A stretch of 57,397 bases of DNA from Candidatus Nomurabacteria bacterium (GCA_003518045.1 DOZK01000020.1:19292-76688); one strand, 5' to 3'. Positions 4,099-54,435 are shown, counted from the first letter of the stretch. Made by a program: numbers and translations. Notes: generated by a model not told the origin, from the letters alone.

Positions 4099-5352
4099 AT
4101 GTCAAAAAATAAAATACTAAGCATAGCTATTTCCTTACTTGTTATTCCTCAAATTACTTTTGCTGTTTGGTGGAACCCTATTTCTTGGTTTAGTTTTAAT
4201 AAAACAAAACAGACAAAAGAAATTGTAGGAAAATCTGCGGAACAGAGTGGCTTAAATTCAGTAATTACTAAAGCAACTAGCTCTAATTTTTTAGTCGGTA
4301 GTACAAGTAAAGAATCACAAAAAAAGATTTTAGAAGAAGTAAAAAATAAAGAATTAGAATACAAAAAAATTTTAGCCGATAGAAAAAACGCGAAGGAACA
4401 AATAGAAAAAAATACTGAGATTTCTAAAAAAGAAAATACGATCAGTCCAGCACAAAATGAGACAACAAAAAGTAACGGAGTTAATTTAACCATCGTTACA
4501 AACCAAGGTGGAAGTATTTTCTATCCAGAAAATACTATTTTTTGTCATAATCTAGAAACTTGTAAAAAAACTTTCTCCGGGAACAAAAAAATTAATTTAA
4601 AAGCAATCCCTATGGAAGGCTACGCTTTTAAAGAATGGTCAGAAGCTAGTTGTGGTAAGTCTTTAGAATGTATTATTAATACGCTGGAAGATATGACCGT
4701 ATATGCTAGATTTGAAGTTAAGAAACCAATAGAACGTACTGGACGTATCACCTCAATATCTCATCCGTCCGAAACTTGTTATGTAACACTAGGGAGAGAG
4801 AATTGTAATATTCCTTTACGATGGGTAAATAATACAGCCCTCGATATGTTAATTAATCTTGATGGAACAGAATATTACATATCAACAGAGGATAAAAATA
4901 GTTTTCCGTATCCACTGGATGCTGATCCAGTAGAAATTGCTAAAGCAGAAACTGAAAATGCGACAGGCCTTACTTTTCTTACATTAGAACGAGGTACTCA
5001 TAAAATTTCTCTTACTGGTGGCGGAAAGACATTAGATACAGTTAATATAAACGTAGAATGTGCTACTGATACTTCTTGGGATGGTAGAAAGTGTTGGCAA
5101 AAAGGAGCTAATCAACTTTTTATTTTTAGAGAAGAAGGGGTAGTTATTAAATCAGATTTACCAGGTATCAATTGTGGTTATAATCCAGAAAAATGTTTAG
5201 CTGGTTTTGCTTCAGGAAAAATAGTTACATTAAAAGCAATAGTAGCGAAAGGCCGCTCTTTCGGTGAGTGGACAGGGGATTGTTCTGGTAAAGAATTAAC
5301 TTGTACATTGTTGATGGACAAGCAAAAAAATGTCGGGGTTAAAATAAGGTAA
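4099..5352 (+). CDS. secreted/anchored protein with two Cys-containing InlB-B-repeat-like modules
   Basis: N-terminal hydrophobic signal/anchor. Internally duplicated pattern C..(n)C...LKAIP.EGY.F.EWS...CG....C......M.VYA.F (around aa 150-205 and 355-415). Confidence 0.5.
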   Translation: MSKNKILSIAISLLVIPQITFAVWWNPISWFSFNKTKQTKEIVGKSAEQSGLNSVITKATSSNFLVGSTSKESQKKILEEVKNKELEYKKILADRKNAKEQIEKNTEISKKENTISPAQNETTKSNGVNLTIVTNQGGSIFYPENTIFCHNLETCKKTFSGNKKINLKAIPMEGYAFKEWSEASCGKSLECIINTLEDMTVYARFEVKKPIERTGRITSISHPSETCYVTLGRENCNIPLRWVNNTALDMLINLDGTEYYISTEDKNSFPYPLDADPVEIAKAETENATGLTFLTLERGTHKISLTGGGKTLDTVNINVECATDTSWDGRKCWQKGANQLFIFREEGVVIKSDLPGINCGYNPEKCLAGFASGKIVTLKAIVAKGRSFGEWTGDCSGKELTCTLLMDKQKNVGVKIR

Positions 5353-5354
5353 AT

Positions 5355-6002
5355 ATGAAATTAAAATCATTAGCAAAAATAGATTTGCCGAGGGAGAAGC
5401 TTCAGAAGTATGGAGTTAATAAGCTCAAAGACCATGAACTTTTGGCTCTTTTGCTTGGTTCTGGAATTAAAGATACAAATGTATTAGAACTTTCAAAAAA
5501 GATTTTAAAAAATATAGAAAAGGATGGAATTGATAAAATTACTTTAGAAAAACTTTTGGTAATTAAAGGCCTCGGTAAAGCAAAATCCTCACAAATTATT
5601 GCATTATTGGAACTCGGAAAGCGTTTGCATACAGACCGTAATCCCGAAGTATTATCAGCACAAGATGTATGGAATCTATGTGCAGACTTTCGTGAATCAA
5701 AGAAAGAACATTTTGCAGCATTTTTTTTAGATACTCAAAGTCGTCTAATAGAAAGGCAAATTATTTCAATCGGAACTTTAAATACAAGTCTTGTTCACCC
5801 GCGCGAAGTTTTTGAACCAGCTATAAAACTTTCAGCAGCGTCAATAATTATCGCCCACAATCACCCGTCAGGGTCACTTGAACCTTCAAAAGAAGATAAA
5901 AAAGTTACCGAACGACTCAAACAATCAGGGGAATTACTTGGAATTGAAGTCGTTGACCATATTGTTCTTTCAAAATCAGGGTTTTTAAGTATAAAGTCAT
6001 AA
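5355..6002 (+). CDS. radC: RadC-family JAB/MPN domain protein
   Basis: HhH-like N-terminus (ELLALLLGSG, IKGLGKAKSSQI) and the JAMM motif HNHPSGSLEPSKEDKKVTERL. Confidence 0.85.
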   Translation: MKLKSLAKIDLPREKLQKYGVNKLKDHELLALLLGSGIKDTNVLELSKKILKNIEKDGIDKITLEKLLVIKGLGKAKSSQIIALLELGKRLHTDRNPEVLSAQDVWNLCADFRESKKEHFAAFFLDTQSRLIERQIISIGTLNTSLVHPREVFEPAIKLSAASIIIAHNHPSGSLEPSKEDKKVTERLKQSGELLGIEVVDHIVLSKSGFLSIKS

Positions 6003-6084
6003 AATTACATTTAAATTAAACAGTAACAAGTGTGTGTGTCTAAAAATGATTGACATTTAAAATATAGTTTGATAATATGTAATT

Positions 6085-24242: not shown

Positions 24243-24277
24243 CAGACACTGGATTCCAAATTAAATTTGGAATGACA
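24243..24277. repeat. partial TGTCA-family repeat (one and a half hairpins)
   Basis: cagaCACTGGA-[TTCCAAA ttaa ATTTGGAA]-TGACA. Confidence 0.6.
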
Positions 24278-24317
24278 TGAATACGAATTTGTATTACTAC
24301 GCACTACGCACTACTTA

Positions 24318-28934: not shown

Positions 28935-28993
28935 ACTAGTTAGGGGTTAGAAGTTAGGAGTTAGAAGTTTTTAAATTACAAAATTTGATTTTG

Positions 28994-29133
28994 TGTCATT
29001 CCAAACTTGATTTGGAATCCAGTGTCTTTAATTTAAGTAGGCAGTAACCAGTGGGCAGTAATCAGTAATACAAATACAGACACTGGACCCGCCTTGCCCG
29101 GCGAGGCAGGCCCTGATTTTCATCAGGATGACA
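28994..29133. repeat. TGTCA multi-hairpin repeat, long variant (copy 4)
   Basis: TGTCA-[TTCCAAA cttga TTTGGAA]-TCCAGTGTC...cagtaaccagtgggcag...CAGACACTGGA-[cccgccttgcccggcgaggcagg]-[CCCTGAT tttc ATCAGGA]-TGACA. Confidence 0.8.
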
Positions 29134-30437: not shown

Positions 30438-31082
30438 ATGAGCACAAAATCAACTGCCACGTTCCCACAAGCCGCGCATCTATTGACCTTGTTTGGTCAG
30501 AAAGATGTTAGCAAGGAACAGTTTGGTCAACTCGTTGACCTTGGACTGCTTTCTGACTTGCTTGATTCCGACCCGACGAAGGTCGACCGCGACAAGTTTC
30601 GGGATGTGCTTGGTCTCAAAATCACAGTGACACCTGTTGCTGAATTGGTGAGTTCAATCATCACCGTTGACCGTTCTGTTTGCCCATCGTACCCCGATTG
30701 GGTGACAAAGGTTATTTACCCGCAATTTGTGGGTATGGGCCCAGTGGGTTACGATGTAACCACACTCAAGCAGTGGCTACATGACGATCAGAAATCTGGT
30801 GTCGTGGCTGGCAACCTGATTCATGAATACCTGAAGAGCAACAAAATGCTTGAAGGGTGTCTCGGTCTTCGTGACCTGGAAGAAATACAGAAGAAGGGTA
30901 TCGCCTTTTTCCGGAAATATTTCCAGGGCAAGGCCGTCTTCGGATGGAAGTCTGTCGTACGGGACTCGAATGGCGACCTGCGTGTGCCGTGTCTGGTCGA
31001 GGACGGTGGTGAGGTTCTTCTGAACTGGCGCTGGCTTGTCTTTGACTGGTTCTCCAATAACCCCGCGCTTCGTTTCGTTTGA
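30438..31082 (+). CDS. DGR target protein 1 (variable C-terminus)
   Basis: 214 aa and visibly GC-rich. The C-terminal 41 aa (VVRDSNGDLRVPCLVEDGGEVLLNWRWLVFDWFSNNPALRFV) are encoded by VR1. The terminal ..RF.-type ending resembles CLec-fold DGR targets. Confidence 0.8.
   Translation: MSTKSTATFPQAAHLLTLFGQKDVSKEQFGQLVDLGLLSDLLDSDPTKVDRDKFRDVLGLKITVTPVAELVSSIITVDRSVCPSYPDWVTKVIYPQFVGMGPVGYDVTTLKQWLHDDQKSGVVAGNLIHEYLKSNKMLEGCLGLRDLEEIQKKGIAFFRKYFQGKAVFGWKSVVRDSNGDLRVPCLVEDGGEVLLNWRWLVFDWFSNNPALRFV
30955..31077 (+). repeat. DGR variable repeat VR1
   Basis: Gap-free 123-nt alignment to 31400-31522 with 17 mismatches, all opposite adenines of the TR copy. Confidence 0.85.
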
Positions 31083-31132
31083 ACTTCGGGCTTGGTCACT
31101 TTGTTTTTTAGACACTTTGACCTTAACCCTTT

Positions 31133-31170
31133 GTCCCGCACCTAGTGATAGTGTGCGGGACTTTTGTTTT
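31133..31170 (+). terminator. hairpin/terminator just 3' of VR1
   Basis: GTCCCGCAC-ctagtgatagt-GTGCGGGAC followed by ttttgtttt. Confidence 0.65.
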
Positions 31171-31177
31171 GTATACT

Positions 31178-31573
31178 AAAACCGAGAGTAGATAATGAAT
31201 GCATGATTATGGTTATGCATCATCGAAATCAGTATCCATATGTCCAGAATATTTAAGATTATAGTTTTAAATAGCGTGGCGTATGTAGACACTTCAAAAA
31301 TGAAGTTACTTGGTATGGTGTGCTAGACATTGTTATGTCAAATAAAATTCAGCCCTGAGATTTTTCAAGGGGTGGTGATATAGATGGCATATTATATAAT
31401 CGTACGGAACTCGAATGGCAACCTGAATGTGCCGTATCTGATCGAGAACGATGGTAAGGTTATTCTGAACTGGAACTGGCTTGACAATGACTGGAACTCC
31501 AATAACCCCGCGCTTCGTTTCGCAACTTATTTCATTTCTAAATGCCAACATTTTATGTTGGCATTTAGTTTTT
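31178..31573 (+). ncRNA. putative stand-alone DGR template RNA 1 (leader + TR1 + terminator)
   Basis: TATACT box at 31172-31177. A 51-nt leader (31184-31234) is 43/51 identical to 49820-49870. TR1 follows, then the terminator CTAAATGCCAACA-tttta-TGTTGGCATTTAG plus a T-run (31538-31573). Confidence 0.5.
31400..31522 (+). repeat. DGR template repeat TR1
   Basis: Asn-codon-rich (AAC/AAT) in the VR frame (RNSNGNLNVPYLIENDGKVILNWNWLDNDWNSNNPALRF). It is the adenine-bearing partner of VR1. Confidence 0.85.
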
Positions 31574-31760
31574 CTTTTCTGCTTGTTGTTTTGTTAATTG
31601 CCCATTCCATCCACCTAGCATTTTACCTATTTCGTTTGTTTTCTCAGAAAGAGAAATATATTTTTTGGTATCGAGTGATTTTGTTTCAAATAAAATTAGT
31701 ATAAGAATATTAAACGTATCTAGCTTTCGAATCGCTATACGAACAAAGGTAATAAAGATA
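31565..31760 (-). pseudogene. truncated avd (accessory variability determinant) remnant
   Basis: The minus-strand frame reads ...RIAIRKLDTFNILILILFETKSLDTKKYISLSEKTNEIGKMLGGWNGQLTKQQAEKKN*. This aligns to the C-terminal half of the Avd at 50330-50725. There is no N-terminal half and no start codon. Confidence 0.7.
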
Positions 31761-38485: not shown

Positions 38486-38548
38486 TGTCATCCTGATGAA
38501 AATCAGGATCCAGTGTCCACTGGATTCCAAATCAAGTTTGGAATGACA
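38486..38548. repeat. TGTCA multi-hairpin repeat, archetypal 63-nt three-hairpin unit (copy 5)
   Basis: TGTCA-[TCCTGAT gaaa ATCAGGA]-[TCCAGTG tc CACTGGA]-[TTCCAAA tcaag TTTGGAA]-TGACA. Three 7-bp hairpins are closed by a 5-bp stem. Confidence 0.85.
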
Positions 38549-38580
38549 CAAACACAAGTTTCCTGATTTAAAAAATATTT

Positions 38581-43883: not shown

Positions 43884-46800
43884 ATGAACGAAAACAACAA
43901 ACAAAAAACAATATCAGAAAAAGAGCAAGAGATTTTAAATTTCTGGCAGGAAAATAAAATCTTTGAAAAATCAATTGAAACTCCAGCTGGTGAAAAAGCC
44001 AAAGGAGATTTCTCTTTTTATGATGGCCCACCATTTGCAACAGGGCTACCACACTTTGGCCATATTCTTGCGGGAACAATAAAAGATGCAATTCCTCGTT
44101 ATCAAACGATGAATGGTAAAAGTGTTCGTCGTAAATGGGGATGGGACTGCCACGGTCTTCCAATTGAAAATTTGATTGAGAAAAAATTAGGACTAAAAAG
44201 TAAAAAAGATATTGAAGATTTTGGTGTTGGAAAATTTAATAAAGATGCGAATGACAGTGTTCTTCAATATGAAGAAGAGTGGAAAAAAGTAATGCCAAGA
44301 TTAGGCAGATGGGCAGATATGGAACATCCATATAAAACAATGGACGCGACTTATACAGAAAGTATTTGGTGGTCATGGAAAACTTTATATGAAAAAGGTC
44401 TTGCTTATGAGGGGAATAAAATGATGCATATTTGTCCACGTTGTGAGACGCCACTTGCTCAATCAGAAGTTGGTCTTGAATATCATGATGTTACGGATTT
44501 ATCTGTAACAGCAAAGTTTGAACTAGTAGATGAGCCGGGGACTTTTGTTTTAGCGTGGACTACAACGCCGTGGACATTACCAGGAAATGTAGCTCTTGCT
44601 CTCAGTAAAGACGCCGAGTATGTAAAAGTCTTATCAAAAGAAGAGGGGAGTACAGAGCAAGAAGTAAGTAAATACATTGTTGCAAAAAGTCGACTAGAGG
44701 AGGTTTTTAAGGGTAAGGAATATGAAATAGTTGAAGAATTTAAAGGAGAGAAATTAGTTGGCAAATCATATAAACCACTATTCCCATATTTTGAAGATAA
44801 AGAAATTGAGAATAAAGAAAATATTTGGAAAATTTGGCATGCGGATTTTATTACTCTTGATACCGGTACTGGTATTGCTCATGAAGCACCAGCATTCGGT
44901 GCGGAAGATATGGAACTTGCAAAGGCAAATAATATTCCTGTAATTAAGCATGTAAAAATGGATGGAACTTTTACAGCGGACGTTACAGATTTTGCTGGAA
45001 TGAAAGTAAAAGTAAAAGATGATACTCAATCGGCTGACATTGAAATAATAAAATGGCTAGCACACAATGGAGAACTTTTTGAAAAGCATAAAATAATTCA
45101 CTCATACCCACTTTGTTGGAGATGTAAAACCCCGTTACTTAACTATGCGACATCAAGTTGGTTTGTTGATGTTCCAAAAATGAAAGATAGATTAATTGAA
45201 GAAAATAAAAAAATTATTTGGGTGCCAGAGCATATTCGAGATGGGCGATTTGGAAAATGGCTAGAGGGTGCGCGTGAATGGGCGGTCTCACGTACTCGTT
45301 ATTGGGGTGCGCCACTTCCAGTTTGGAAAAATGAAGATGGGGAGATGATTATAATTGGCTCTTTAAAAGAATTAGCTGAGAAAAATAAACAACAACCAAA
45401 AAATATTTATTATGTAATGCGTCATGGAGAAGCCGAAAGTAATGTAGCAGGGATAATTGACTCAGATGGAAGTGAAACTAATAATCTTACAGAAAAAGGA
45501 ATAGCACAGGCAAAACTAAGCGCAGAAAATCTTAAAGATAAAAATATTGATGTGATTTTTACTTCGCCATTTTTAAGAACAAAGAAAACAGCAAAAATAG
45601 TTTCAGATATTTTAGGTGGTGTTGAAATTATTGAAGATATGCGTCTTAAGGAAGTCAATGTAGGTATTTATGACAAAAGAAAAGTGTCTGACTATTTGAA
45701 AGAAGTTGGAAAATTAAAATATCTTACACTGGATAATCGTGTTAAAGGAGGGGAAACACACAGAGAGGTTATGAATCGTATGGTGCAGGTGTTTATGGAA
45801 ATGGAAGAAAAATATGAAGGGAAAAATATTTTATTTGTTACCCACGGTGGGCCAGCCAGGATGTTTGTAGCTGGTGCGCATAATCTTACAGAAGAAGAAT
45901 TACTTATTGATGAAGCAACTGATGAAGCAAAACTTTATCCAAAAAACGCAGAAGTTGTAAAAGTCTCGCCATTAATAATTCCTCGTGATGAAACTGGGGC
46001 TGTTAATCTTCATCGTCCTTATATTGATAACACTGAACTATTAGTTGATGGGAAAACATATAAACGTATTCCGGATGTATTTGATTGTTGGTATGAATCA
46101 GGTTCAATGCCATTTGCTCAACTTCACTATCCGTTTGAAAATAAAGAAATTTTTGCAAAAAATTATCCGGCAGATTTTATTGCCGAAGGTTTAGACCAAA
46201 CACGCGGATGGTTTTATTCACTTATCAATTTAGGTGTAGGATTATTTGATAAAGCTCCGTATAAACATGTGGCAGTGAATGGACTTATTATGGCAGAGAC
46301 GGGTATGAAGTTATCAAAGAGTGAGAAAAATTATACAGACCCAATGGAGCTTGTAGAAAAGTATGGGGCGGACTCTATGCGTTACGCACTGTTATCTAGT
46401 CCAGTTGTAAAAGGGGAGAATTTACTTTTTGGTGATGATATTGTTTCTGATATTTATAAAAAGTTAGTTTCTCGATTATTAAACGTGCTTTCATTATATG
46501 AAATGAATAAGCCTGAAAATGTTATTGCAAAAAATACATCAAGTGATGTATTAGATAGATGGATGATTTCTAGGGTGCATGAATTATTGCGTGATGCGAC
46601 AAAAGGATATGACTCATATAAATTAGATGAAGCGACTCGTGGGACAGGAGATTTAATCGATGATATTTCTGTTTGGTATACAAGAAGATCACGCGAAAGA
46701 TTAAAGGGTGATATGGGTGAGGAAAGTCAAATGCGTGCTTACGTTACTTTGACTTATGTATTACAAACATTAGCAAAAACTATGGCACCAGTTATGCCAT

Positions 46801-47345
46801 TCACTGCTGAAATTGTTTATAAAGCTTTAAATGGTGAAAGAGAGTCTGTCCATCTTGAAAGTTGGCCAACAGTTGGAGTTATTGAAGATGAAGTTATAAA
46901 AGAAATGAAAAATGTAAGAGATATAGTTACGGTTGCTCTTTCACTTCGAACACAATCTAAAATCGCAGTTCGTCAGCCACTTCAAAAAATTACTCTGAAA
47001 GATGAGATAAAAAGCGAGTATCACCAAATAATTTTGGACGAACTTAATGTTAAAGAAATCGCATTTGCTAATTCTTTAACTGAGGTCTGCGTATTAGATA
47101 CAGAAATTACTGAAGAATTAAAATTAGAAGGGGACGTGAGAAATCTTATGCGTGCCGTACAAGATGCTCGTAAAGAAAAAGGATTAACTCCGCAAGATTC
47201 TATTATTCTTTTGACAGATTATTCTGTGCCAGAAAAGTTTAAAGAAGTATTAATGAATACTTGTAAAATTAGTGAAATAAAAGGAGGAAGCGGAAAATAC
47301 AAAGCTGAGACCGGAGTAGGGGAGGTGTCGTTTGATATAAATTAA
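43884..47345 (+). CDS. ileS: isoleucine--tRNA ligase (type 2-like) with an inserted histidine-phosphatase domain
   Basis: HIGH (PHFGHILAG), WDCHGLP, an editing domain, WAVSRTRYWGAPLPVW, and KMSKS (MKLSKSEKN). About 195 extra aa with RHG/PGAM motifs sit between IIIGSLKEL and NLHRPYID. Confidence 0.93.
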   Translation: MNENNKQKTISEKEQEILNFWQENKIFEKSIETPAGEKAKGDFSFYDGPPFATGLPHFGHILAGTIKDAIPRYQTMNGKSVRRKWGWDCHGLPIENLIEKKLGLKSKKDIEDFGVGKFNKDANDSVLQYEEEWKKVMPRLGRWADMEHPYKTMDATYTESIWWSWKTLYEKGLAYEGNKMMHICPRCETPLAQSEVGLEYHDVTDLSVTAKFELVDEPGTFVLAWTTTPWTLPGNVALALSKDAEYVKVLSKEEGSTEQEVSKYIVAKSRLEEVFKGKEYEIVEEFKGEKLVGKSYKPLFPYFEDKEIENKENIWKIWHADFITLDTGTGIAHEAPAFGAEDMELAKANNIPVIKHVKMDGTFTADVTDFAGMKVKVKDDTQSADIEIIKWLAHNGELFEKHKIIHSYPLCWRCKTPLLNYATSSWFVDVPKMKDRLIEENKKIIWVPEHIRDGRFGKWLEGAREWAVSRTRYWGAPLPVWKNEDGEMIIIGSLKELAEKNKQQPKNIYYVMRHGEAESNVAGIIDSDGSETNNLTEKGIAQAKLSAENLKDKNIDVIFTSPFLRTKKTAKIVSDILGGVEIIEDMRLKEVNVGIYDKRKVSDYLKEVGKLKYLTLDNRVKGGETHREVMNRMVQVFMEMEEKYEGKNILFVTHGGPARMFVAGAHNLTEEELLIDEATDEAKLYPKNAEVVKVSPLIIPRDETGAVNLHRPYIDNTELLVDGKTYKRIPDVFDCWYESGSMPFAQLHYPFENKEIFAKNYPADFIAEGLDQTRGWFYSLINLGVGLFDKAPYKHVAVNGLIMAETGMKLSKSEKNYTDPMELVEKYGADSMRYALLSSPVVKGENLLFGDDIVSDIYKKLVSRLLNVLSLYEMNKPENVIAKNTSSDVLDRWMISRVHELLRDATKGYDSYKLDEATRGTGDLIDDISVWYTRRSRERLKGDMGEESQMRAYVTLTYVLQTLAKTMAPVMPFTAEIVYKALNGERESVHLESWPTVGVIEDEVIKEMKNVRDIVTVALSLRTQSKIAVRQPLQKITLKDEIKSEYHQIILDELNVKEIAFANSLTEVCVLDTEITEELKLEGDVRNLMRAVQDARKEKGLTPQDSIILLTDYSVPEKFKEVLMNTCKISEIKGGSGKYKAETGVGEVSFDIN

Positions 47346-47397
47346 TTATTCTTCAGTTTTTCACTGGACCAATTCTTAATTACAAAACTCCAACGCA

Positions 47398-47498
47398 TGT
47401 CATTCCAAACTTGATTTGGAATCCAGTGTCCACTGAAATTATAAGGCACTGGACCCGCCTTGCCGGCGAGGCAGGTCCTGATTTTCATCAGGATGACA
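47398..47498. repeat. TGTCA multi-hairpin repeat, four-hairpin variant (copy 6)
   Basis: TGTCA-[TTCCAAA cttga TTTGGAA]-[TCCAGTG ...18 nt... CACTGGA]-[cccGCCTTG ccgg CGAGGCagg]-[TCCTGAT tttc ATCAGGA]-TGACA. Confidence 0.85.
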
Positions 47499-47574: not shown

Positions 47575-47820
47575 ATGAGTAAAATAACATTAAAAAATAA
47601 CAGAGAATATACTGCTTTTTTTGAGGAAAATGAACTCGGAGGATATACAATTACTGTGCCTGCACTTCCTGGGCTTGTTACAGAAGCAAAAGATATGAAG
47701 CAAGCAAAGGTTGTGTTACAAGATGCCATTACTTGTTATATTGAGGGGCTAAAGAAATCAAAAGTAGAAATACCAAAAGAAAGTTTTGTTGCAAGTATGC
47801 GTTTGCAGTTTGCTGTGTAA
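47575..47820 (+). CDS. hicB: HicB-family antitoxin
   Basis: 81 aa. YTAFFEENELGGYTITVPALPGLVTEAKDMKQA...DAI..YIEGL is the UPF0150/HicB N-domain pattern. Confidence 0.75.
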   Translation: MSKITLKNNREYTAFFEENELGGYTITVPALPGLVTEAKDMKQAKVVLQDAITCYIEGLKKSKVEIPKESFVASMRLQFAV

Positions 47821-47825
47821 TTCGT

Positions 47826-48044
47826 ATGCCAAAACTTCCAATTCTTACACCAAAAAAGTTAGTAAAAATTTTGTGTAAAATTGGTTTTTATATTCATCAT
47901 CAAACAGGGAGCCACATTAACTTACGCCATAGTATTAAAAATAATTTACATGTGGTTATTCCTTATCATACGAGAGATTTAGCTCCAAAAACTCTCAAGT
48001 CAATTATTATGCAAGCAGATATTTCCATAGATGATTTATTATAA
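47826..48044 (+). CDS. hicA: HicA-family mRNA interferase toxin
   Basis: 72 aa. LTPKKLVKIL.K.GF...HQTGSHINLRH...VVIPYHTRDLAPKTLKSII. Confidence 0.8.
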   Translation: MPKLPILTPKKLVKILCKIGFYIHHQTGSHINLRHSIKNNLHVVIPYHTRDLAPKTLKSIIMQADISIDDLL

Positions 48045-48054
48045 TTAAAAAACC

Positions 48055-49737
48055 ATGCCACCAAAAAAATTTGAAGGAAAGTTTGGAATACCACAATCTA
48101 ATTCTATTGACTCAGAGCTTACCTCCGCACTCTATAGACTTCCAGACTCAATAAGTCTGCCTTTTATAGAAAGCATGACAGAAGATATCGTTAGTAAAGT
48201 AAATAAAAGATTAGAAGAAATGTATGAGGAATCTTTATTAGGAAATGATAAAGGTATTGCAAATGTGAGAATTAGACGTGCTCTTTCTGATGAACAAAGA
48301 AAAATACTTCAACTCAAACTTACAAGGCACTTTGAAGACAATGGTGAATCTGCAAAAATAGACGTACCAGTATGTGTTGATGCACTCATAGAGTCACCAA
48401 GATTTTTAGAGAGTATGAAAGGAAGTATGGACAAACTTTTTGCAATGCATGAAATGAAGATATTACAAAAGATTGCCGAATTAAGACGTAAACGAGCAGA
48501 GATGAGTGGAGATGAATCTTTGTATAATCCTTATGAAAATCTTTTTGAAACAAGCAGTGGCAAATATTGTATGGCAAGACTTTTGAATATGCCTCATTTA
48601 GAAGAAGAGTCTGAATATATGGATCATTGTGTTGGAACAAGTACAAGCTATGTTAACAAAATCAAGAAAGGTGAGGTCGAGATACTTTCTTTTCGAGACA
48701 CATCAACTAATAATCCAATCGCTACTATTGAGTATGATCTTAAGAGTAAAAGATTACTACAGATAAAATTAATGAGTGATAAGTTGCCAAAGTTAAGCGA
48801 CTCATTTTCTGCTGATTTATTAGAAGCAATAGAAAAATTGGAGACGACAACAAATGATCTAGGTGTTCCTAGAGTTATTGAGGGTAGTCTAGCTAAGGAC
48901 ATGAAGACACTCCTATCTTTACAAGAGAAATCCAAAAAACAAGAAGTATATACAAGAGATGACCTTTTATTTCTATATGAAATTAGTTCACCTATCCAAT
49001 GTTTTGATAGTGGAAGAGATCCACTTATTGATGAGTTATTGCGAAAAAGAAACCGCCAAGAAGACATACAACTCCTTTGTAATTGTGAGTCACAGTTTAT
49101 TGCATTTGACTTCATTGATATCAATGAACAAACTCAAGTTTTCTGTGAAGACACAGGGAAGAAAATCACTTTTGTTGATTTTCGTCTAGAAGCAAACCAA
49201 AAGAAACTCCCGCAACTTCTCGAACTCGCACAGCACATCAAAGAAAGTGGTAGTCCCGCGAGACCGGATATGTCATTTGAAGGTGGAATAGTAACTATAG
49301 ATATATCAGAAGAAAAATTAAAAGATACAAAGACAGTCTTACAATCATACAAAGAAGCAGACAGTAGCTCTCCATCATGGGTATGGGATGAATGGATAAA
49401 CGCACCCTATACTAAACCAAAATTACCACTAGAAACTATTATTTTGTCATATAACAAAGATACAAACACAAGAGAATCATCAGATAAAATTGTATCAGAT
49501 ATGAATAGATTAGGATTAAGACCTGCAACATTAGAAGAACTTATTGCTCTTGGAGTAATAAAACCAGAATTTAATAAACGAAGTGGCTCTTACCTTGTTG
49601 AACTAACAAAATATTCTTTGGATGGTGGTTCCTACGTTCCCTGCGTGGACTGGGGTGGCGACGAGCGTGACTTGGTCGGGTATGAGTGGGGGAGTAGGTG
49701 GATTGACAGGAATCGTTTTGTTTGCGTTCGCAAATAG
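48055..49737 (+). CDS. DGR target protein 2 (variable C-terminus)
   Basis: 560 aa. The last ~40 aa (SLDGGSYVPCVDWGGDERDLVGYEWGSRWIDRNRFVCVRK) are encoded by VR2, and the ..RFVCVRK ending is typical of CLec-fold DGR targets. A central MDHCVGTSTSYVNKIKKGEVEILSFRD block is reminiscent of PcfJ-like domains (weak call). Confidence 0.8.
   Translation: MPPKKFEGKFGIPQSNSIDSELTSALYRLPDSISLPFIESMTEDIVSKVNKRLEEMYEESLLGNDKGIANVRIRRALSDEQRKILQLKLTRHFEDNGESAKIDVPVCVDALIESPRFLESMKGSMDKLFAMHEMKILQKIAELRRKRAEMSGDESLYNPYENLFETSSGKYCMARLLNMPHLEEESEYMDHCVGTSTSYVNKIKKGEVEILSFRDTSTNNPIATIEYDLKSKRLLQIKLMSDKLPKLSDSFSADLLEAIEKLETTTNDLGVPRVIEGSLAKDMKTLLSLQEKSKKQEVYTRDDLLFLYEISSPIQCFDSGRDPLIDELLRKRNRQEDIQLLCNCESQFIAFDFIDINEQTQVFCEDTGKKITFVDFRLEANQKKLPQLLELAQHIKESGSPARPDMSFEGGIVTIDISEEKLKDTKTVLQSYKEADSSSPSWVWDEWINAPYTKPKLPLETIILSYNKDTNTRESSDKIVSDMNRLGLRPATLEELIALGVIKPEFNKRSGSYLVELTKYSLDGGSYVPCVDWGGDERDLVGYEWGSRWIDRNRFVCVRK
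49615..49733 (+). repeat. DGR variable repeat VR2
   Basis: Gap-free 119-nt alignment to 50038-50156 with 15 mismatches: 14 opposite TR adenines and one opposite a TR thymine (TR position 50068). Confidence 0.85.
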
Positions 49738-49813
49738 TACTTAGGTTTTAGTTACTTTACTTTTGCTTTAGAACTTTTGACTTAAACAAATTTTAGAAGT
49801 ATCACGTATACTA

Positions 49814-50235
49814 GAACATGAGAGTAGATAATGAGTGTATGGATATTTTTATACAACATCGAAATCAGTAGGGTATAGATGAGAATTCAAGTACAAGAAT
49901 AATGTATAGGAAGAGTATCTATATTTGTTTCAAAAAAGAAATCTACTTGGCGTAGTTATGTTAAGTATTATTATACTAGCTTAAATTCAACATATGGTTG
50001 CGACTGTGTGTGGTGGTATGCATGCATAACTACGAAATCTTTGGATGGTGATTCCTACGTTCCCTACTTGAACTGGAATGGCGACAAGCGTAACTTGAAC
50101 AGGAATGAGTGGAGGAATAGGTGGAATGACAGGAATCGTTTTGTTTGCGTTCGCAATTTAATTTCTTTACATAACACGACCTCCGAGTCCAAGACATGAG
50201 TCTGCTGACTCAGGAGGTCGTGTTATGTTTTTTTG
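49814..50235 (+). ncRNA. putative stand-alone DGR template RNA 2 (leader + TR2 + terminator)
   Basis: TATACT box at 49807-49812, then the conserved 51-nt leader at 49820-49870 and TR2. A long hairpin follows, ACATAACACGACCTCC(gagtc)...(gactc)aGGAGGTCGTGTTATGT plus a T7 run (50169-50235). Confidence 0.5.
50038..50156 (+). repeat. DGR template repeat TR2
   Basis: The adenine-rich partner of VR2. In the VR frame it reads SLDGDSYVPYLNWNGDKRNLNRNEWRNRWNDRNRFVCVR, with many AAY Asn codons. Confidence 0.85.
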
Positions 50236-50245
50236 TATGAATTTG

Positions 50246-50319
50246 TGTCATTCCCGCGAAGGCGGGAATCCAGTGTCCAAATGAGTATGGGCCTGGATTC
50301 CCGCCTTCGTGGGAATGAG
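50246..50319. repeat. TGTCA multi-hairpin repeat (copy 7, partly degenerate)
   Basis: TGTCA-[TTCCCGC gaag GCGGGAA]-[TCCAG ...19 nt... CTGGA]-[TTCCC gccttcgt GGGAA]-TGAG. Confidence 0.7.
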
Positions 50320-50329
50320 TTACGAAAAA

Positions 50330-50725
50330 CTAATTAAGCTGTTTTACAACTTGATTATGCCAACCACCGAGCATCTTACCTATTTCGTGTAACTTTTCGC
50401 TGAGTGCTATATATTGTTTTGTTTCAAAGGCTTTTATAGTATGTGCCACACGAAGCATTACTTTTGCAGTATCGAGTAGTTGTATCGCTTTCTGAATATA
50501 TTGTAGCTTCTGTTCTTTCTTCACAAAAAGTGCCGATGAAGTATATTGGATAACTTCACATAGGAGAGTATCTATTTTTACACCGAGCGAGTATCTATGA
50601 ACTTTTGGAAAGTGTATGATGTAGGAATGCCAAAGTACATAAGCAACTTCGAGTTTGAGGATAAGAGGAGGAGTACTGATTTCGTGGGGGGGGGGGCGAT
50701 ATTCATAGCAAAAAGTGTAACACAC
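50330..50725 (-). CDS. avd: DGR accessory variability determinant (Avd, four-helix-bundle family)
   Basis: 131 aa. FPKVHRYSLGVKIDTLLCEVIQ...LDTAKVMLRVAH...LSEKLHEIGKMLGGW fits Avd / 23S-IVS-type four-helix-bundle proteins. It is divergent from the RT. The only ATG start places a C11 tract (RPPPH) inside the 5' end. Confidence 0.75.
   Translation of the reverse strand: MCYTFCYEYRPPPHEISTPPLILKLEVAYVLWHSYIIHFPKVHRYSLGVKIDTLLCEVIQYTSSALFVKKEQKLQYIQKAIQLLDTAKVMLRVAHTIKAFETKQYIALSEKLHEIGKMLGGWHNQVVKQLN
50686..50696. repeat. G11/C11 homopolymer tract
   Basis: Eleven consecutive G on the plus strand. The tract lies within avd codons 10-13 and 62 nt upstream of the annotated RT start. Confidence 0.95.
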
Positions 50726-50757
50726 AGTATGATGATATTGTTACTTTTGAAAAGCTA

Positions 50758-51579
50758 TTGGAATCATGGAATGATTTTGTGAGTGGGAAAAGAAAGAGAG
50801 AAGATGTGAATACATTTGCATTACGGCTGTCTGATAATTTGATTGACCTTTTTTATGAACTAAAAAGCGATGTGTACATTCATGGAAATTACGAAGAGTA
50901 TGTTATTTGCGACCCGAAGAAGCGTATCATTCATAAAGCAAGTGTGAGAGATAGAGTAGTGCATCGACTACTCTATAATGCTTTGTATAGCTATTTCGAT
51001 AGACGATACATCTATGACTCATATAGTTGTCGAATTGGAAAAGGAACACATAAAGCACAAGCTAGATTTAGATATTTTGTAAATGCTGTAAGTAAAAATT
51101 ATACGAAACCATGTTATGTTCTCAAGTTTGATATTAAGAAATGTTTTGAAAGTATTGATGCTGACATTCTTAAAAATATACTTTTCACACATATACAAGA
51201 TGAGCGATTAAAAAGTCTTGTCTTTAAAATTATTGATAGTTTTCCGAAAGGATTGCCACTAGGAAATTTAACTTCACAGTTATTCATTAACATCTATCTT
51301 CATGAATTAGATTGGTATGTAAAGCAGACACTTCATTGCACGCATTATTTTAGATATGCGGATGATATGGTTGTTATTTCTCATGATAAAAAAGAATTAG
51401 AAAATTTCTACAAGCAATTACAAATTTTCTTGAAACAGGAACTTCATCTGACAACACATAAAAAAGTAATTAGTAGTATCTACTCAGGAATTGATATTCT
51501 CGGGTTAGTTTTCTTTGCAAAGTATCAGAGATTGCGAAGGAGTACAGAGAGGAGAAAGAATGCGAGAGGTGGTAAATAA
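50758..51579 (+). CDS. DGR-type reverse transcriptase
   Basis: RT motifs: KKRIIHKASVRDRVVHRLL, FDIKKCFESID, the DGR-diagnostic LPLGNLTSQLFINIYL ([LIV]GxxxSQ), and YADDMVVIS. The annotated start is TTG, and homology (YDDIVTFEKLL) continues upstream to the stop at 50677 without an ATG. Confidence 0.85.
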   Translation: MESWNDFVSGKRKREDVNTFALRLSDNLIDLFYELKSDVYIHGNYEEYVICDPKKRIIHKASVRDRVVHRLLYNALYSYFDRRYIYDSYSCRIGKGTHKAQARFRYFVNAVSKNYTKPCYVLKFDIKKCFESIDADILKNILFTHIQDERLKSLVFKIIDSFPKGLPLGNLTSQLFINIYLHELDWYVKQTLHCTHYFRYADDMVVISHDKKELENFYKQLQIFLKQELHLTTHKKVISSIYSGIDILGLVFFAKYQRLRRSTERRKNARGGK

Positions 51580-54232: not shown

Positions 54233-54279
54233 AAATAAGTCTGTAAAGTCCATAAAGTTGAAAGCAAAATTCGCAATTG

Positions 54280-54346
54280 TGTCATTCCCGCGAAGGCGGG
54301 AATCCAGTGTCCAGAACCTGGATTCCAAATCAAGTTTGGAATGACA
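54280..54346. repeat. TGTCA multi-hairpin repeat (copy 8)
   Basis: TGTCA-[TTCCCGC gaag GCGGGAA]-[TCCAG gtgtccagaac CTGGA]-[TTCCAAA tcaag TTTGGAA]-TGACA. Confidence 0.85.
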
Positions 54347-54435
54347 CAGGTTCCATTGGTTGGTTTAATTGAACTTTGTAAACTTTTAACTTTATGGACT
54401 TTCAACTAACCTAATTTTTATGTTAGGATAGTTGT

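Follow-up and report, generated by a model that had tools for sequence, protein, structure and literature searches.

We describe a gene cluster on the chromosome of a Candidatus Nomurabacteria bacterium that we identify as a diversity-generating retroelement (DGR) of architecture B3, in which mutagenesis is probably gated by a heritable and reversible phase switch, operated by slippage of a short poly(G·C) tract. The tract (50686-50696, G11 on the strand of the reverse transcriptase, RT) lies inside the head-to-head overlap of the 5′ ends of avd and the RT gene, and it looks like an on/off switch not described before. Coordinates refer to the window, the whole stretch of 57,397 nt that was analysed.

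The RT gene (50597-51579 on the plus strand, as the open reading frame of the ON allele) encodes a protein whose closest match in the PDB is the Bordetella phage enzyme bRT (8ub7_A, E = 9.5e-35), with group II RTs at 6e-10 or worse. The LGNLTSQ and YADD motifs reported by the first-pass annotation are both present, line up with the corresponding motifs of bRT and conform to the patterns [ILV]GxxxSQ and Y[AM]DD. NCBIfam models of group II, retron and DRT enzymes all scored far under their cut-offs, and identity as a group II intron, retron or Abi/DRT RT was rejected; by sequence, the RT belongs to the DGR clade, as had been expected. Adenine-biased pairs of template repeat (TR) and variable repeat (VR) were found at 88 related RT loci, always with the TR on the RT strand. 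Between TR and RT, the 131-aa minus-strand frame at 50330-50725 that had been described as an Avd-type protein matches Pfam bAvd at 49.8 bits (cut-off 40); its NCBIfam DivGenRetAVD score, 58.9 bits, is under the equivalog cut-off of 80.

Variation in the VR of this element is adenine-specific. Repeat comparison identified TR2 (50038-50156, plus strand), which aligns without gaps over 119 nt with VR2 (49615-49733, plus strand), the last 40 codons of target gene 2. Of the 15 mismatches, 14 lie at TR adenines and the other at a TR thymine (T>G at 49645); each affects the first or second position of a codon in the target frame, and the adenine bias is highly significant (at least 14 of 15 mismatches at 31 TR adenines, hypergeometric p = 5.7e-9). 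In that frame 8 of the 39 codons of TR2 are AAY and no third codon position holds an A. Both the alignment and the AAY richness had been noted in the first-pass annotation and were reproduced here. Over their 3′-terminal 22-29 nt the two repeats match exactly, free of mutation, and beyond this they diverge abruptly.

TR2 was unchanged across all sibling contigs. A 13.7-kb contig from another sample (L129) differs from the window at 5 positions in 13,683 nt, all of them in VR2 and all at TR-adenine sites; the natural VR2 variants of L130 likewise sit at such sites, and the protein variants P0286 and P0318 have their differences confined to the VR. A sister lineage yielded four VR haplotypes, among which 30 sites vary, 23 of them at TR adenines. 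Judged from these consensus contigs, rather than from reads, the element is a real DGR that has been recently active in nature.

Target gene 2 (48055-49737, plus strand) encodes a 560-aa protein with a PcfJ-like domain at aa 126-241 (Pfam PcfJ, E = 1.5e-10) and, as the first-pass annotation had it, the VR at its extreme C-terminus, where VR2 supplies the final 40 residues (..NRFVCVRK). Of two AlphaFold models for target 2, one had a pLDDT of 94.7 and the other, of the 114-aa variable domain, 88.3. When the model of the variable domain was compared with the PDB by Foldseek, the top 14 matches were all C-type lectin-like (best E = 5.6e-3, prob 0.98; TM 0.44-0.52); Mtd, TvpA and AvpA themselves were not matched in this search, Pfam gave no lectin match, and a PDB sequence search gave no match at all. 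The predicted structure gives moderate support to the C-type lectin fold that had been suggested for the target C-terminus.

The gene order target, TR, inverted avd, RT does differ from that of the Bordetella prototype, as pointed out previously, but it is no oddity: passages of Wu et al. 2018 (PMC5758913) give architecture B3, TR-(avd)-RT, for 90% of CPR DGRs and place PcfJ-like targets in category g. The coordinates here follow the B3 order with avd on the opposite strand, and the same layout was found in 62 related loci. As those passages describe them, B3 CPR DGRs share with this element gene order, orientation, a CPR (Parcubacteria) host, the PcfJ-like N-terminal domain, the C-terminal VR and a placement of TR adenines in the first two codon positions; taken as a DGR, it is an ordinary new member of the CPR-typical kind. 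The searched passages of the same paper mention no simple repeat, homopolymeric or otherwise, where avd and RT meet, no conserved 5′ RNA domain, and no second, RT-less TR/VR cassette with an avd remnant.

The tract is the sole G/C run of 8 or more nucleotides in the 57-kb window, and it is positioned between the upstream start codons that we infer for the two genes and their conserved N-termini. A tract of 8-15 nt, with G always on the RT strand, occupies the avd/RT junction in 31 of the 62 related loci (27 of 56 distinct), and just 6 further G/C runs of this kind occur in the 601 kb of these loci (Poisson p about 1e-72). At four more loci (GA)n or (CT)n replaces the homopolymer at the junction. 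Half of the related loci are without a tract, so a DGR can function in its absence.

Tract length varies on otherwise identical DNA, with G11 in the window and in L001-3 and L129, G12 in L126 and L127, and G14 in L128; in the sister lineage G8, G9 and G10 occur on identical VR haplotypes with identical flanks. No indels were found elsewhere in 13.7-17 kb of identical sequence. In L128 a C>G change lengthens the run while the frame is kept, and N-terminal variants of the reading frame were found in two further RT clusters at 90% identity. Lengths were read from assemblies, not reads, and two assemblies of run SRR5306409 disagree (G9 and G8), a discrepancy that could stem from a mixed population or from homopolymer error.

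Length determines which frames are open. In sibling contigs with G12 or G14, avd and RT are both open: avd is read from the ATG at 50706-50704 through the poly-C as 125 aa (MNIAPPPHEIS.. or MNIPPPPHEIS..; P0126 is encoded by the G14 contig L128), and the RT reading frame starts at ATG 50597 (327 aa; P0124, encoded by G12 and G14 alleles) or at GTG 50684, preceded by AGGAGG. Adding one G to the window in silico (G12) regained MNIAPPPHEIS... In the G11 allele, avd is readable only from GTG 50725, giving the 131-aa frame, with its ATG out of frame, and the RT frame opens past the TGA at 50677-79, which leaves TTG 50758 as its first canonical start. The first-pass annotation had begun the RT at 50758, which is too far downstream, as the alignment to bRT starts at nt 50719; because of the stop at 50677-79, G11 has no canonical in-frame start ahead of the bRT homology. 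Its description of the DGR as complete holds in that all parts are present, but in the G11 allele the RT frame is cut off from every canonical start and avd cannot be read from its ATG. The NCBI (PGAP) annotation places the RT start at ATT 50701 (292 aa), downstream of the tract, and if this is the real start the RT is independent of the tract. Nor is G11 proof of inactivity, because L129, which is G11, bears new VR variants.

The coding sequences of avd and RT overlap in antiparallel fashion across the tract, so that a single slip changes the frame of each, and the frames of related loci show the same coupling. Canonical in-frame starts for both genes were present in 24 of 25 tract-less loci versus 12 of 27 tract-bearing ones (Fisher p = 5e-5). 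Avd is opened by exactly one length class at 13 loci, and at all 13 the RT, too, was open from an upstream start in that class. At the assembled length, the nearest upstream ATG was in frame with Avd in only 2 of 27 tract-bearing loci; most were off by +1, and offsets of both +1 and −1 occur, the window being −1.

This scarcity of in-frame avd starts fits an OFF-biased switch and recoding about equally well. In the latter case the tract would be a programmed slippage site, at which RNA polymerase stutter or +1 ribosomal frameshifting at CCC-C proline codons in avd yields a small, steady share of in-frame product from a frame that the genome encodes as ‘off’, and DGR activity would be constantly low with no toggle. 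Transcriptional slippage occurs on homopolymers of at least 9 nt, and CCC-C is a site where tRNA-Pro readily shifts by +1; 9 of the 13 single-class loci were assembled at the Avd-open length plus one, where the RT keeps an in-frame proximal start, and the VR variants arose on a G11 background. We nevertheless consider recoding rather unlikely, as one mechanism predicts a single direction whereas both offsets occur, genomic lengths truly differ between identical contigs, in-frame alleles exist, and the dinucleotide repeats at four loci suit DNA slippage better than proline-codon frameshifting.

The tract might instead be a neutral hotspot in an ordinary DGR, an error-prone homopolymer or assembly artefact coding Gly-Gly-Gly in the RT and Pro-Pro-Pro in Avd, with out-of-frame alleles as noise or decaying copies. 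Long G runs are error-prone in short reads, the two assemblies of SRR5306409 disagree, RT homologues read ‘GGGD’ across the tract, and half of the loci are tract-free. Against this stand an enrichment at one exact site of approximately 500-fold over background, seen with different assemblers and in independent studies, the presence there of (GA)n and (CT)n in other loci, the frame-preserving extension of the run in L128, the lack of any other indel in the identical sequence and the co-phasing of both genes’ frames; a need for Gly or Pro, moreover, does not explain all-GGG codons in a 34% GC genome, and we regard a neutral origin as quite improbable. We give very little credence to a purely transcriptional switch, in which the RT would start at ATT 50701 and Avd at a non-canonical codon, both within, so that a tract in overlapping 5′ UTRs or promoter spacers tunes divergent transcription. 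The PGAP start, the conservation of ‘ATTCAT’ right after the tract in several lineages and the lack of space for a classical intergenic promoter region accord with it, but tract-less relatives almost always have canonical ATG, GTG or TTG starts for both genes, in-frame alleles give long canonical-start frames for both genes in the same length class, and no promoter-like site that we found has the tract in its spacer.

Phase switching by tract slippage, the reading that we favour, has precedents in SSR contingency loci, which include poly-G/C tracts in Neisseria, Haemophilus and Campylobacter; at hifA/hifB of Haemophilus influenzae, a TA repeat common to two divergent genes sets transcription. 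What the tract shares with such loci is a homopolymer, 8-15 nt long and able to slip, near the 5′ end of coding sequence, and a frame-changing length polymorphism, here at the level of assemblies, among otherwise identical genomes, with frames that toggle between open and closed; as at hifA/hifB, a single repeat serves two divergent genes. The genes here are not for surface antigens or restriction-modification systems; they encode targeted-mutagenesis enzymes in a CPR host, and the position of the tract, where two coding sequences overlap antiparallel, is a further difference. We infer that switching is selected for and reversible.

TR2 is accompanied by RNA elements with putative functional roles. 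On its 5′ side, a conserved structured RNA domain (49817-49953, plus strand; covariance model 131 and 116 bits) has covarying helices that continue to about 50030. The covariance model finds 42 copies of this 135-nt domain at 40 loci, in every case on the strand of the RT; the copies that were compared with mapped repeats lie between VR and TR. Compensatory changes were seen in 37 of 40 pairs, with 87% of cells paired and 0 of 500 shuffles equal, and in 33 of 65 pairs of a six-sequence alignment; Rfam holds no matching family. Just upstream, a consensus scan marked the promoter-like site TAAACA-18-TATACT (49783-49812, plus strand), a putative promoter whose −10-like hexamer is kept in six aligned cassettes; the number of sites in the scan was not above that in shuffles. 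A strong hairpin with a U-run (50169-50228, plus strand; MFE −41.2 kcal/mol, z = −8.8) begins 13 nt past TR2, and hairpins directly 3′ of the TR were seen in many related loci (of 87 TR flanks in total, 40% had z < −2). Handa et al. (bioRxiv 10.1101/2023.10.23.563531) predicted an Avd-binding stem-loop just 3′ of the TR in 207 of 278 Avd-containing DGRs, CPR ones included, and the hairpin here is a candidate for such a stem-loop, for the terminator of the TR RNA, or for both. The REP-like palindromic repeat that follows (50231-50320; repeat families D4, D5 and D9), between this hairpin and the end of avd, is an insertion outside the DGR mechanism.

With BPP-1 (mtd-avd-TR-brt) the element shares a related RT (1e-34) with motif 4 xGxLTSQ and Y(A/M)DD, an Avd four-helix partner, adenine-specific transfer from TR to VR, a variable domain predicted to be of C-type-lectin type, and a stem-loop immediately 3′ of the TR. 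Unlike in BPP-1, avd is inverted and overlaps the RT head to head, the element is chromosomal rather than phage-borne, and the RT, like all its close homologues, stops at a point equivalent to about residue 285 of bRT. VR2 also differs in having no significant hairpin downstream (z = +0.8); one does follow VR1 of a second cassette (z = −5.4), and GC-rich inverted repeats after the VR occur in only 34% of DGRs according to passages of Wu et al. 2018 (PMC5758913). In BPP-1, whose RNA elements include the Avd-binding stem-loop and a cPRT stop duplex, the TR requires structured RNA both upstream and downstream (bioRxiv 10.1101/2023.10.23.563531), a further likeness, but there the upstream RNA is the 3′ end of the avd mRNA, whereas here a noncoding domain of ~135 nt, in which five helices covary, is dedicated to this position. 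Because avd fills the TR-RT spacer, any Sp-like functions must sit in the short 3′ hairpin and the 5′ domain.

The second cassette lies 18.6 kb upstream of the DGR. Its target gene 1 (30438-31082, plus strand, 214 aa), retrieved by a profile of target 2 at E = 8.7e-11, has a C-terminal domain homologous to that of target 2 and contains VR1 (30955-31077, plus strand). A copy of the 5′ structured RNA domain follows (31181-31316, plus strand; covariance model 101 and 108 bits), with compensatory changes relative to that of the DGR, and then TR1 (31400-31522, plus strand, by repeat comparison) with a hairpin and U-run after it (31538-31568, z = −6.6). Adjoining TR1 is an avd remnant comprising the C-terminal half only (31565-31753, minus strand; 46% identity to Avd aa 74-129, E = 2e-19). 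All 17 mismatches between VR1 and TR1 are at TR1 adenines, and the adenine-bias test gave p = 1.4e-13 when the repeat was extended to 30953 (19 of 19). The list of open reading frames in the window has no RT beside TR1, and the RT and Avd of the DGR probably also serve this cassette in trans.

In the mechanism that we propose, a self-contained noncoding RNA would be transcribed from the plus strand from the promoter-like −10 site, comprising the 135-nt 5′ domain and its adjoining helices, TR2 and the 3′ hairpin with its U-run. An RT-Avd complex would copy TR2 into cDNA with misincorporation at template adenines, and the cDNA would replace VR2, recoding the C-type-lectin-like tip of the PcfJ-domain protein. 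Since the 5′ ends of avd and RT overlap at the tract and the two genes diverge from it, slippage would alter both reading frames simultaneously: at n = 12, or in the G14 variant, the frames for the 125-aa Avd and the 327-aa RT are open together, and at n = 11, as in the window, the RT is disconnected from canonical starts and avd has lost the frame of its ATG. We regard as evenly poised the wider proposition that in many CPR bacteria the DGR machinery is a contingency locus in which one hypermutable tract or dinucleotide repeat toggles avd and RT together at random, and in which RT-Avd is brought to each TR by the 5′ RNA domain instead of by the avd mRNA. If this is true, only a subpopulation of cells would diversify its C-type-lectin-like proteins at any time, and RT-less satellite cassettes such as VR1/TR1 could be served in trans through the 5′ RNA domain.

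The diversity-generating retroelement (DGR) at 48055-51579 is active in nature. L129, a contig from SRR2177968, is identical to the window across 13,683 nt save for five bases (49693, 49702, 49703, 49706, and 49711), and all five lie inside VR2 and opposite TR adenines. Three sequences make up the 90% protein cluster of the target, and they differ solely at VR residues 547, 550, 551, and 553. In a sister lineage of related contigs (L131-L140), which has the same synteny as the window (HicB-HicA-target-TR-avd-RT-RecO), four VR haplotypes occur on otherwise near-identical 7-kb contigs, with 23 of the 30 variable VR sites opposite TR adenines. The repeat pair itself, VR2 (49615-49733) and TR2 (50038-50156), aligns without gaps over 119 nt with 15 mismatches, 14 at TR adenines and one at a TR thymine; given 31 A among the 119 TR2 bases, the hypergeometric chance of at least 14 of 15 falling at adenines is 5.7e-9. 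VR2 forms the last 40 codons of a 560-aa ORF (48055-49737), every mismatch is in codon position 1 or 2, and TR2 is rich in AAY codons (8 of 39) with no third-position A. On these and all other points of fact the first-pass annotation held, the RT start excepted.

Changes outside the adenine pattern were also seen. The VR2 change opposite the TR thymine is a T>G at 49645, and each sister-lineage VR haplotype carries one to three non-A changes. Contig L130 has a T>G at 49716, within the otherwise invariant 3' end of VR, and at 1.35x coverage this may be an error. Directly upstream of the target gene is a HicB/HicA toxin-antitoxin pair (47575-48044), preceded by an isoleucyl-tRNA synthetase gene (43884-47345, 1153 aa) in which a histidine-phosphatase domain (PF00300, His_Phos_1) lies between tRNA-synt_1 segments, as judged from Pfam matches of the identical gene in contig L001.

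Among solved structures, the RT frame translated from 50680 best matches the Bordetella phage reverse transcriptase (bRT; 8ub7_A; E=9.5e-35), with group II intron RTs far behind (6e-10 or worse), and its GLPLGNLTSQLF and RYADD motifs align with those of bRT. NCBIfam models for group II, retron, and DRT proteins all scored far under their cut-offs on the window RT. Among the related RT loci retrieved, 88 have a repeat pair of their own with adenine bias, and in every one of them TR and RT share a strand; this identifies the clade of the window RT as a DGR clade. Close homologues all stop 15-20 residues past motif 7, near bRT residue 285; this common end point rules out a C-terminally truncated enzyme and makes the short C-terminus a trait of the whole family. 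A UGA-recoded genome was ruled out because translation table 11 leaves long housekeeping ORFs unbroken. The NCBI record of the same RT, HCC06220.1, is filed under Candidatus Nomurabacteria bacterium, Parcubacteria group. The minus-strand ORF at 50330-50725 is an Avd, as had been proposed, scoring 49.8 bits against Pfam bAvd (cut-off 40), and falls short of the NCBIfam equivalog cut-off.

The target carries a PcfJ-like domain at aa 126-241 and a C-terminal domain that an exhaustive HMMER search recovered from 224 cluster representatives, where it again forms the extreme C-terminus; a word-indexed search had returned four homologues, and the exhaustive search followed by a profile search was needed. 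Single-sequence and profile searches of PDB sequences gave nothing useful. AlphaFold models of the C-terminus were confident, reaching pLDDT 94.7 (180 aa) and 88.3 (114 aa). In Foldseek searches, the 180-aa model gave only weak lectin matches in the PDB (E 0.09 or worse) and no meaningful match in BFVD, and trimming to 114 aa was needed for the lectin matches: the top 14 PDB matches of the trimmed domain were all C-type lectin-like domains (best E=5.6e-3, prob 0.98; TM 0.44-0.52). The fold had been anticipated by analogy with known DGR targets. Mtd, TvpA, and AvpA themselves were not matched by the trimmed domain in the PDB. The Foldseek matches lend moderate support to a predicted C-type lectin fold.

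The gene order had been presented as differing from the Bordetella phage prototype. It is not unusual: target-TR-(avd)-RT is architecture B3, and PcfJ-like targets are category g, in Wu et al. 2018 (PMC5758913), and in our own sample avd lies inverted directly upstream of RT in 62 related loci. With this order, known as the standard in CPR, and a category g target, the element adds one more ordinary case to a class already described.

The spacer between VR and TR is conserved and common to both cassettes in the window. Aligned with four related spacers, the two copies support seven helices in which 33 of 65 pairs show compensatory changes, a number reached by none of 500 shuffles. These structured, covarying 5' RNA domains lie at 49817-50030 and 31181-31400. 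After one round of iteration, a covariance model built on the first 135 nt found 42 copies in 40 B3-type loci, all on the RT strand, and every match checked against mapped repeats lay between VR and TR. In the resulting alignment, which was fitted to the model and so favours structure, compensatory changes appear in 37 of 40 pairs, and paired cells amount to 87%, as against 37-45% with partners slid. Covariation is the sole support for a small hairpin in a 51-nt conserved element, whose folding energy alone was not significant (z=-0.2 and -0.8). Rfam has no family for the domain: scans of the whole window at gathering thresholds and of 49500-50900 by E-value yielded tRNAs and spurious matches to miRNA hairpins, and nothing else.

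Five nucleotides upstream of the 5' domain, a promoter scan and the alignment place a -10-like TATACT (49807-12); overall, the promoter/terminator scan gave counts no higher than shuffles and missed the long TR hairpin. That hairpin, 13 nt 3' of TR2, folds at -41 kcal/mol (z=-8.8) and is followed by a U-run. A like hairpin follows TR1 (z=-6.6), and a hairpin comes directly after TR in many of the related loci inspected. Avd-binding stem-loops just downstream of TR have been predicted in 207 of 278 DGRs (Handa et al., bioRxiv 10.1101/2023.10.23.563531). We infer a discrete noncoding RNA of ~410 nt comprising the 5' domain, TR, and the 3' hairpin, with the 5' domain probably making up the 5' portion of the template RNA. 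The RNAs of CPR DGRs do not have the avd-TR-Sp layout of Bordetella; the domain offers a handle on their recognition and could serve to find orphan TR cassettes. A REP-like palindrome (50231-50320) sits as an insertion between the TR2 hairpin and the avd 3' end; related intergenic palindromes (GTCATTCC..GGAATCCAGTGTC and variants) occur at 1240-1286, 24247-24290, 28969-29026, 38518-38561, 47373-47430, and 54265-54359.

The second cassette, 18.6 kb upstream (30438-31753), comprises a 214-aa target ORF (30438-31082) with VR1 at 30955-31077, a 5' domain copy (31181-31316, 101-108 bits), TR1 (31400-31522) followed by its hairpin, and on the minus strand an avd remnant (31565-31753) that retains the C-terminal half only (46% identity, E=2e-19). 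The 17-19 positions that distinguish VR1 from TR1 are without exception TR adenines (p=1.4e-13), and the target 1 domain is homologous to that of target 2. The ORF list contained no RT next to this cassette, and a comparison of six contigs showed no variation in VR1. We infer that the RT and Avd of the downstream cassette serve it in trans. In locus L006, whose RT is 50% identical, a 5' domain-TR-avd-G11 module is duplicated in tandem (1617-2337 and 5288-6008, ~3.7 kb apart), with RT following the second copy only. Its resemblance to the satellite cassette of the window suggests that TR-avd modules duplicate recurrently.

Between the start of Avd homology (~50662, minus strand) and that of bRT homology (50719) lies a run of 11 G on the RT strand (G11, 50686-50696), the sole G/C homopolymer of at least 8 nt in the 57-kb window (34% GC). 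In the RT frame, TGA at 50677-79 precedes this tract and the first ATG, GTG, or TTG after it is at 50758, within the conserved N-terminus; this codon had been proposed as the RT start, but bRT homology already begins upstream of it, at 50719. GTG 50684, with AGGAGG upstream, and ATG 50597 are both in the +1 frame. On the minus strand, ATG 50706-04 is out of the Avd frame and the sole in-frame start is GTG 50725. One added G (G12) brings both genes into frame from those starts, giving an RT beginning MNFWKVYDVG...FVGGGGDIHSKKC and an Avd beginning MNIAPPPHEISTPPLILK. The DGR had been described as complete; all of its parts are present, but in the allele carried by the window RT is separated from canonical starts. 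NCBI calls the RT at 50701-51579 (292 aa) from a rare ATT and reduces Avd to a 64-aa C-terminal fragment (HCC06218.1, 50330-50524), while other gene callers on the same DNA give RTs of 266, 273, or 327 aa and Avds of 125 or 131 aa, by tract length. At such junctions, gene callers and DGR finders will give RT and avd wrong starts or break them up.

Tract length varies among otherwise identical sequences. All lengths are assembly consensus calls, and one run, SRR5306409, reads G9 in one assembly and G8 in another. G11 is carried by the window, L001-L003, and L129, whose new VR variants sit on a G11 background. Two contigs, L126 (SRR6487400) and L127 (SRR2177950), have G12 and are elsewhere 100% identical to the window, and L128 (SRR2177953) has G14 through a C>G change plus one added G, which gives the same frame as G12. 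Database proteins match the open alleles (a 327-aa RT, P0124; a 125-aa Avd, P0126). Seven sister-lineage contigs have a G9 tract, two have G10, and one has G8, and the same VR haplotype occurs with different tract lengths; both genes are open at G9, RT is read from a proximal start with Avd out of frame at G10 (P0328), and the RT ORF is truncated at G8 (P0329). N-terminal variants of like kind occur in two more 90% RT clusters.

The tract is also conserved in position. A G run of 8-15 nt lies exactly at the avd/RT junction, always with G on the RT strand, in 31 of 62 loci (27 of 56 distinct) that span RT identities down to ~41%, and (GA)n or (CT)n takes its place in four more. Only six other G/C runs of at least 8 nt occur in 601 kb of these loci. 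In one related locus, a G11 (L029:5611) lies just after TR near the avd 3' end and not at the avd/RT junction. Both genes have canonical in-frame starts in 24 of 25 loci without a tract but in just 12 of 27 with one (Fisher p=5e-5). Thirteen loci have a single length class that opens Avd from an upstream start, and in all 13 that class opens RT as well (chance 2/3 each).

All-GGG codons in AT-rich genomes, dinucleotide replacement, co-phasing, and length variation on identical backgrounds together point to selection having favoured a slippery repeat by which both genes are framed. A Gly or Pro motif as the object of selection does not fit these four observations. Contrary to expectation, the nearest avd ATG is in frame as assembled in only two of 27 tract-bearing loci, most being assembled at the in-frame length plus one. 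We therefore dropped the idea that assembled genomes are mostly ON and added a rival reading, recoding. The pattern could mean that OFF-biased populations are typical, and it could equally reflect +1 recoding on CCC-C codons. Were RT instead to begin at the rare ATT that PGAP chose (50701), it would be free of the tract.

A literature search for DGRs tied to homopolymers, phase variation, or contingency loci returned nothing relevant. As far as we could find, three features are new: a conserved repeat of variable length where avd and RT overlap, the structured RNA domain 5' of TR, and the RT-less satellite cassette. Unchecked retrohoming should be costly. If the tract does act as a switch, targeted hypermutation would have a simple gate at the population level in the slippage-prone repeat that frames RT and Avd.
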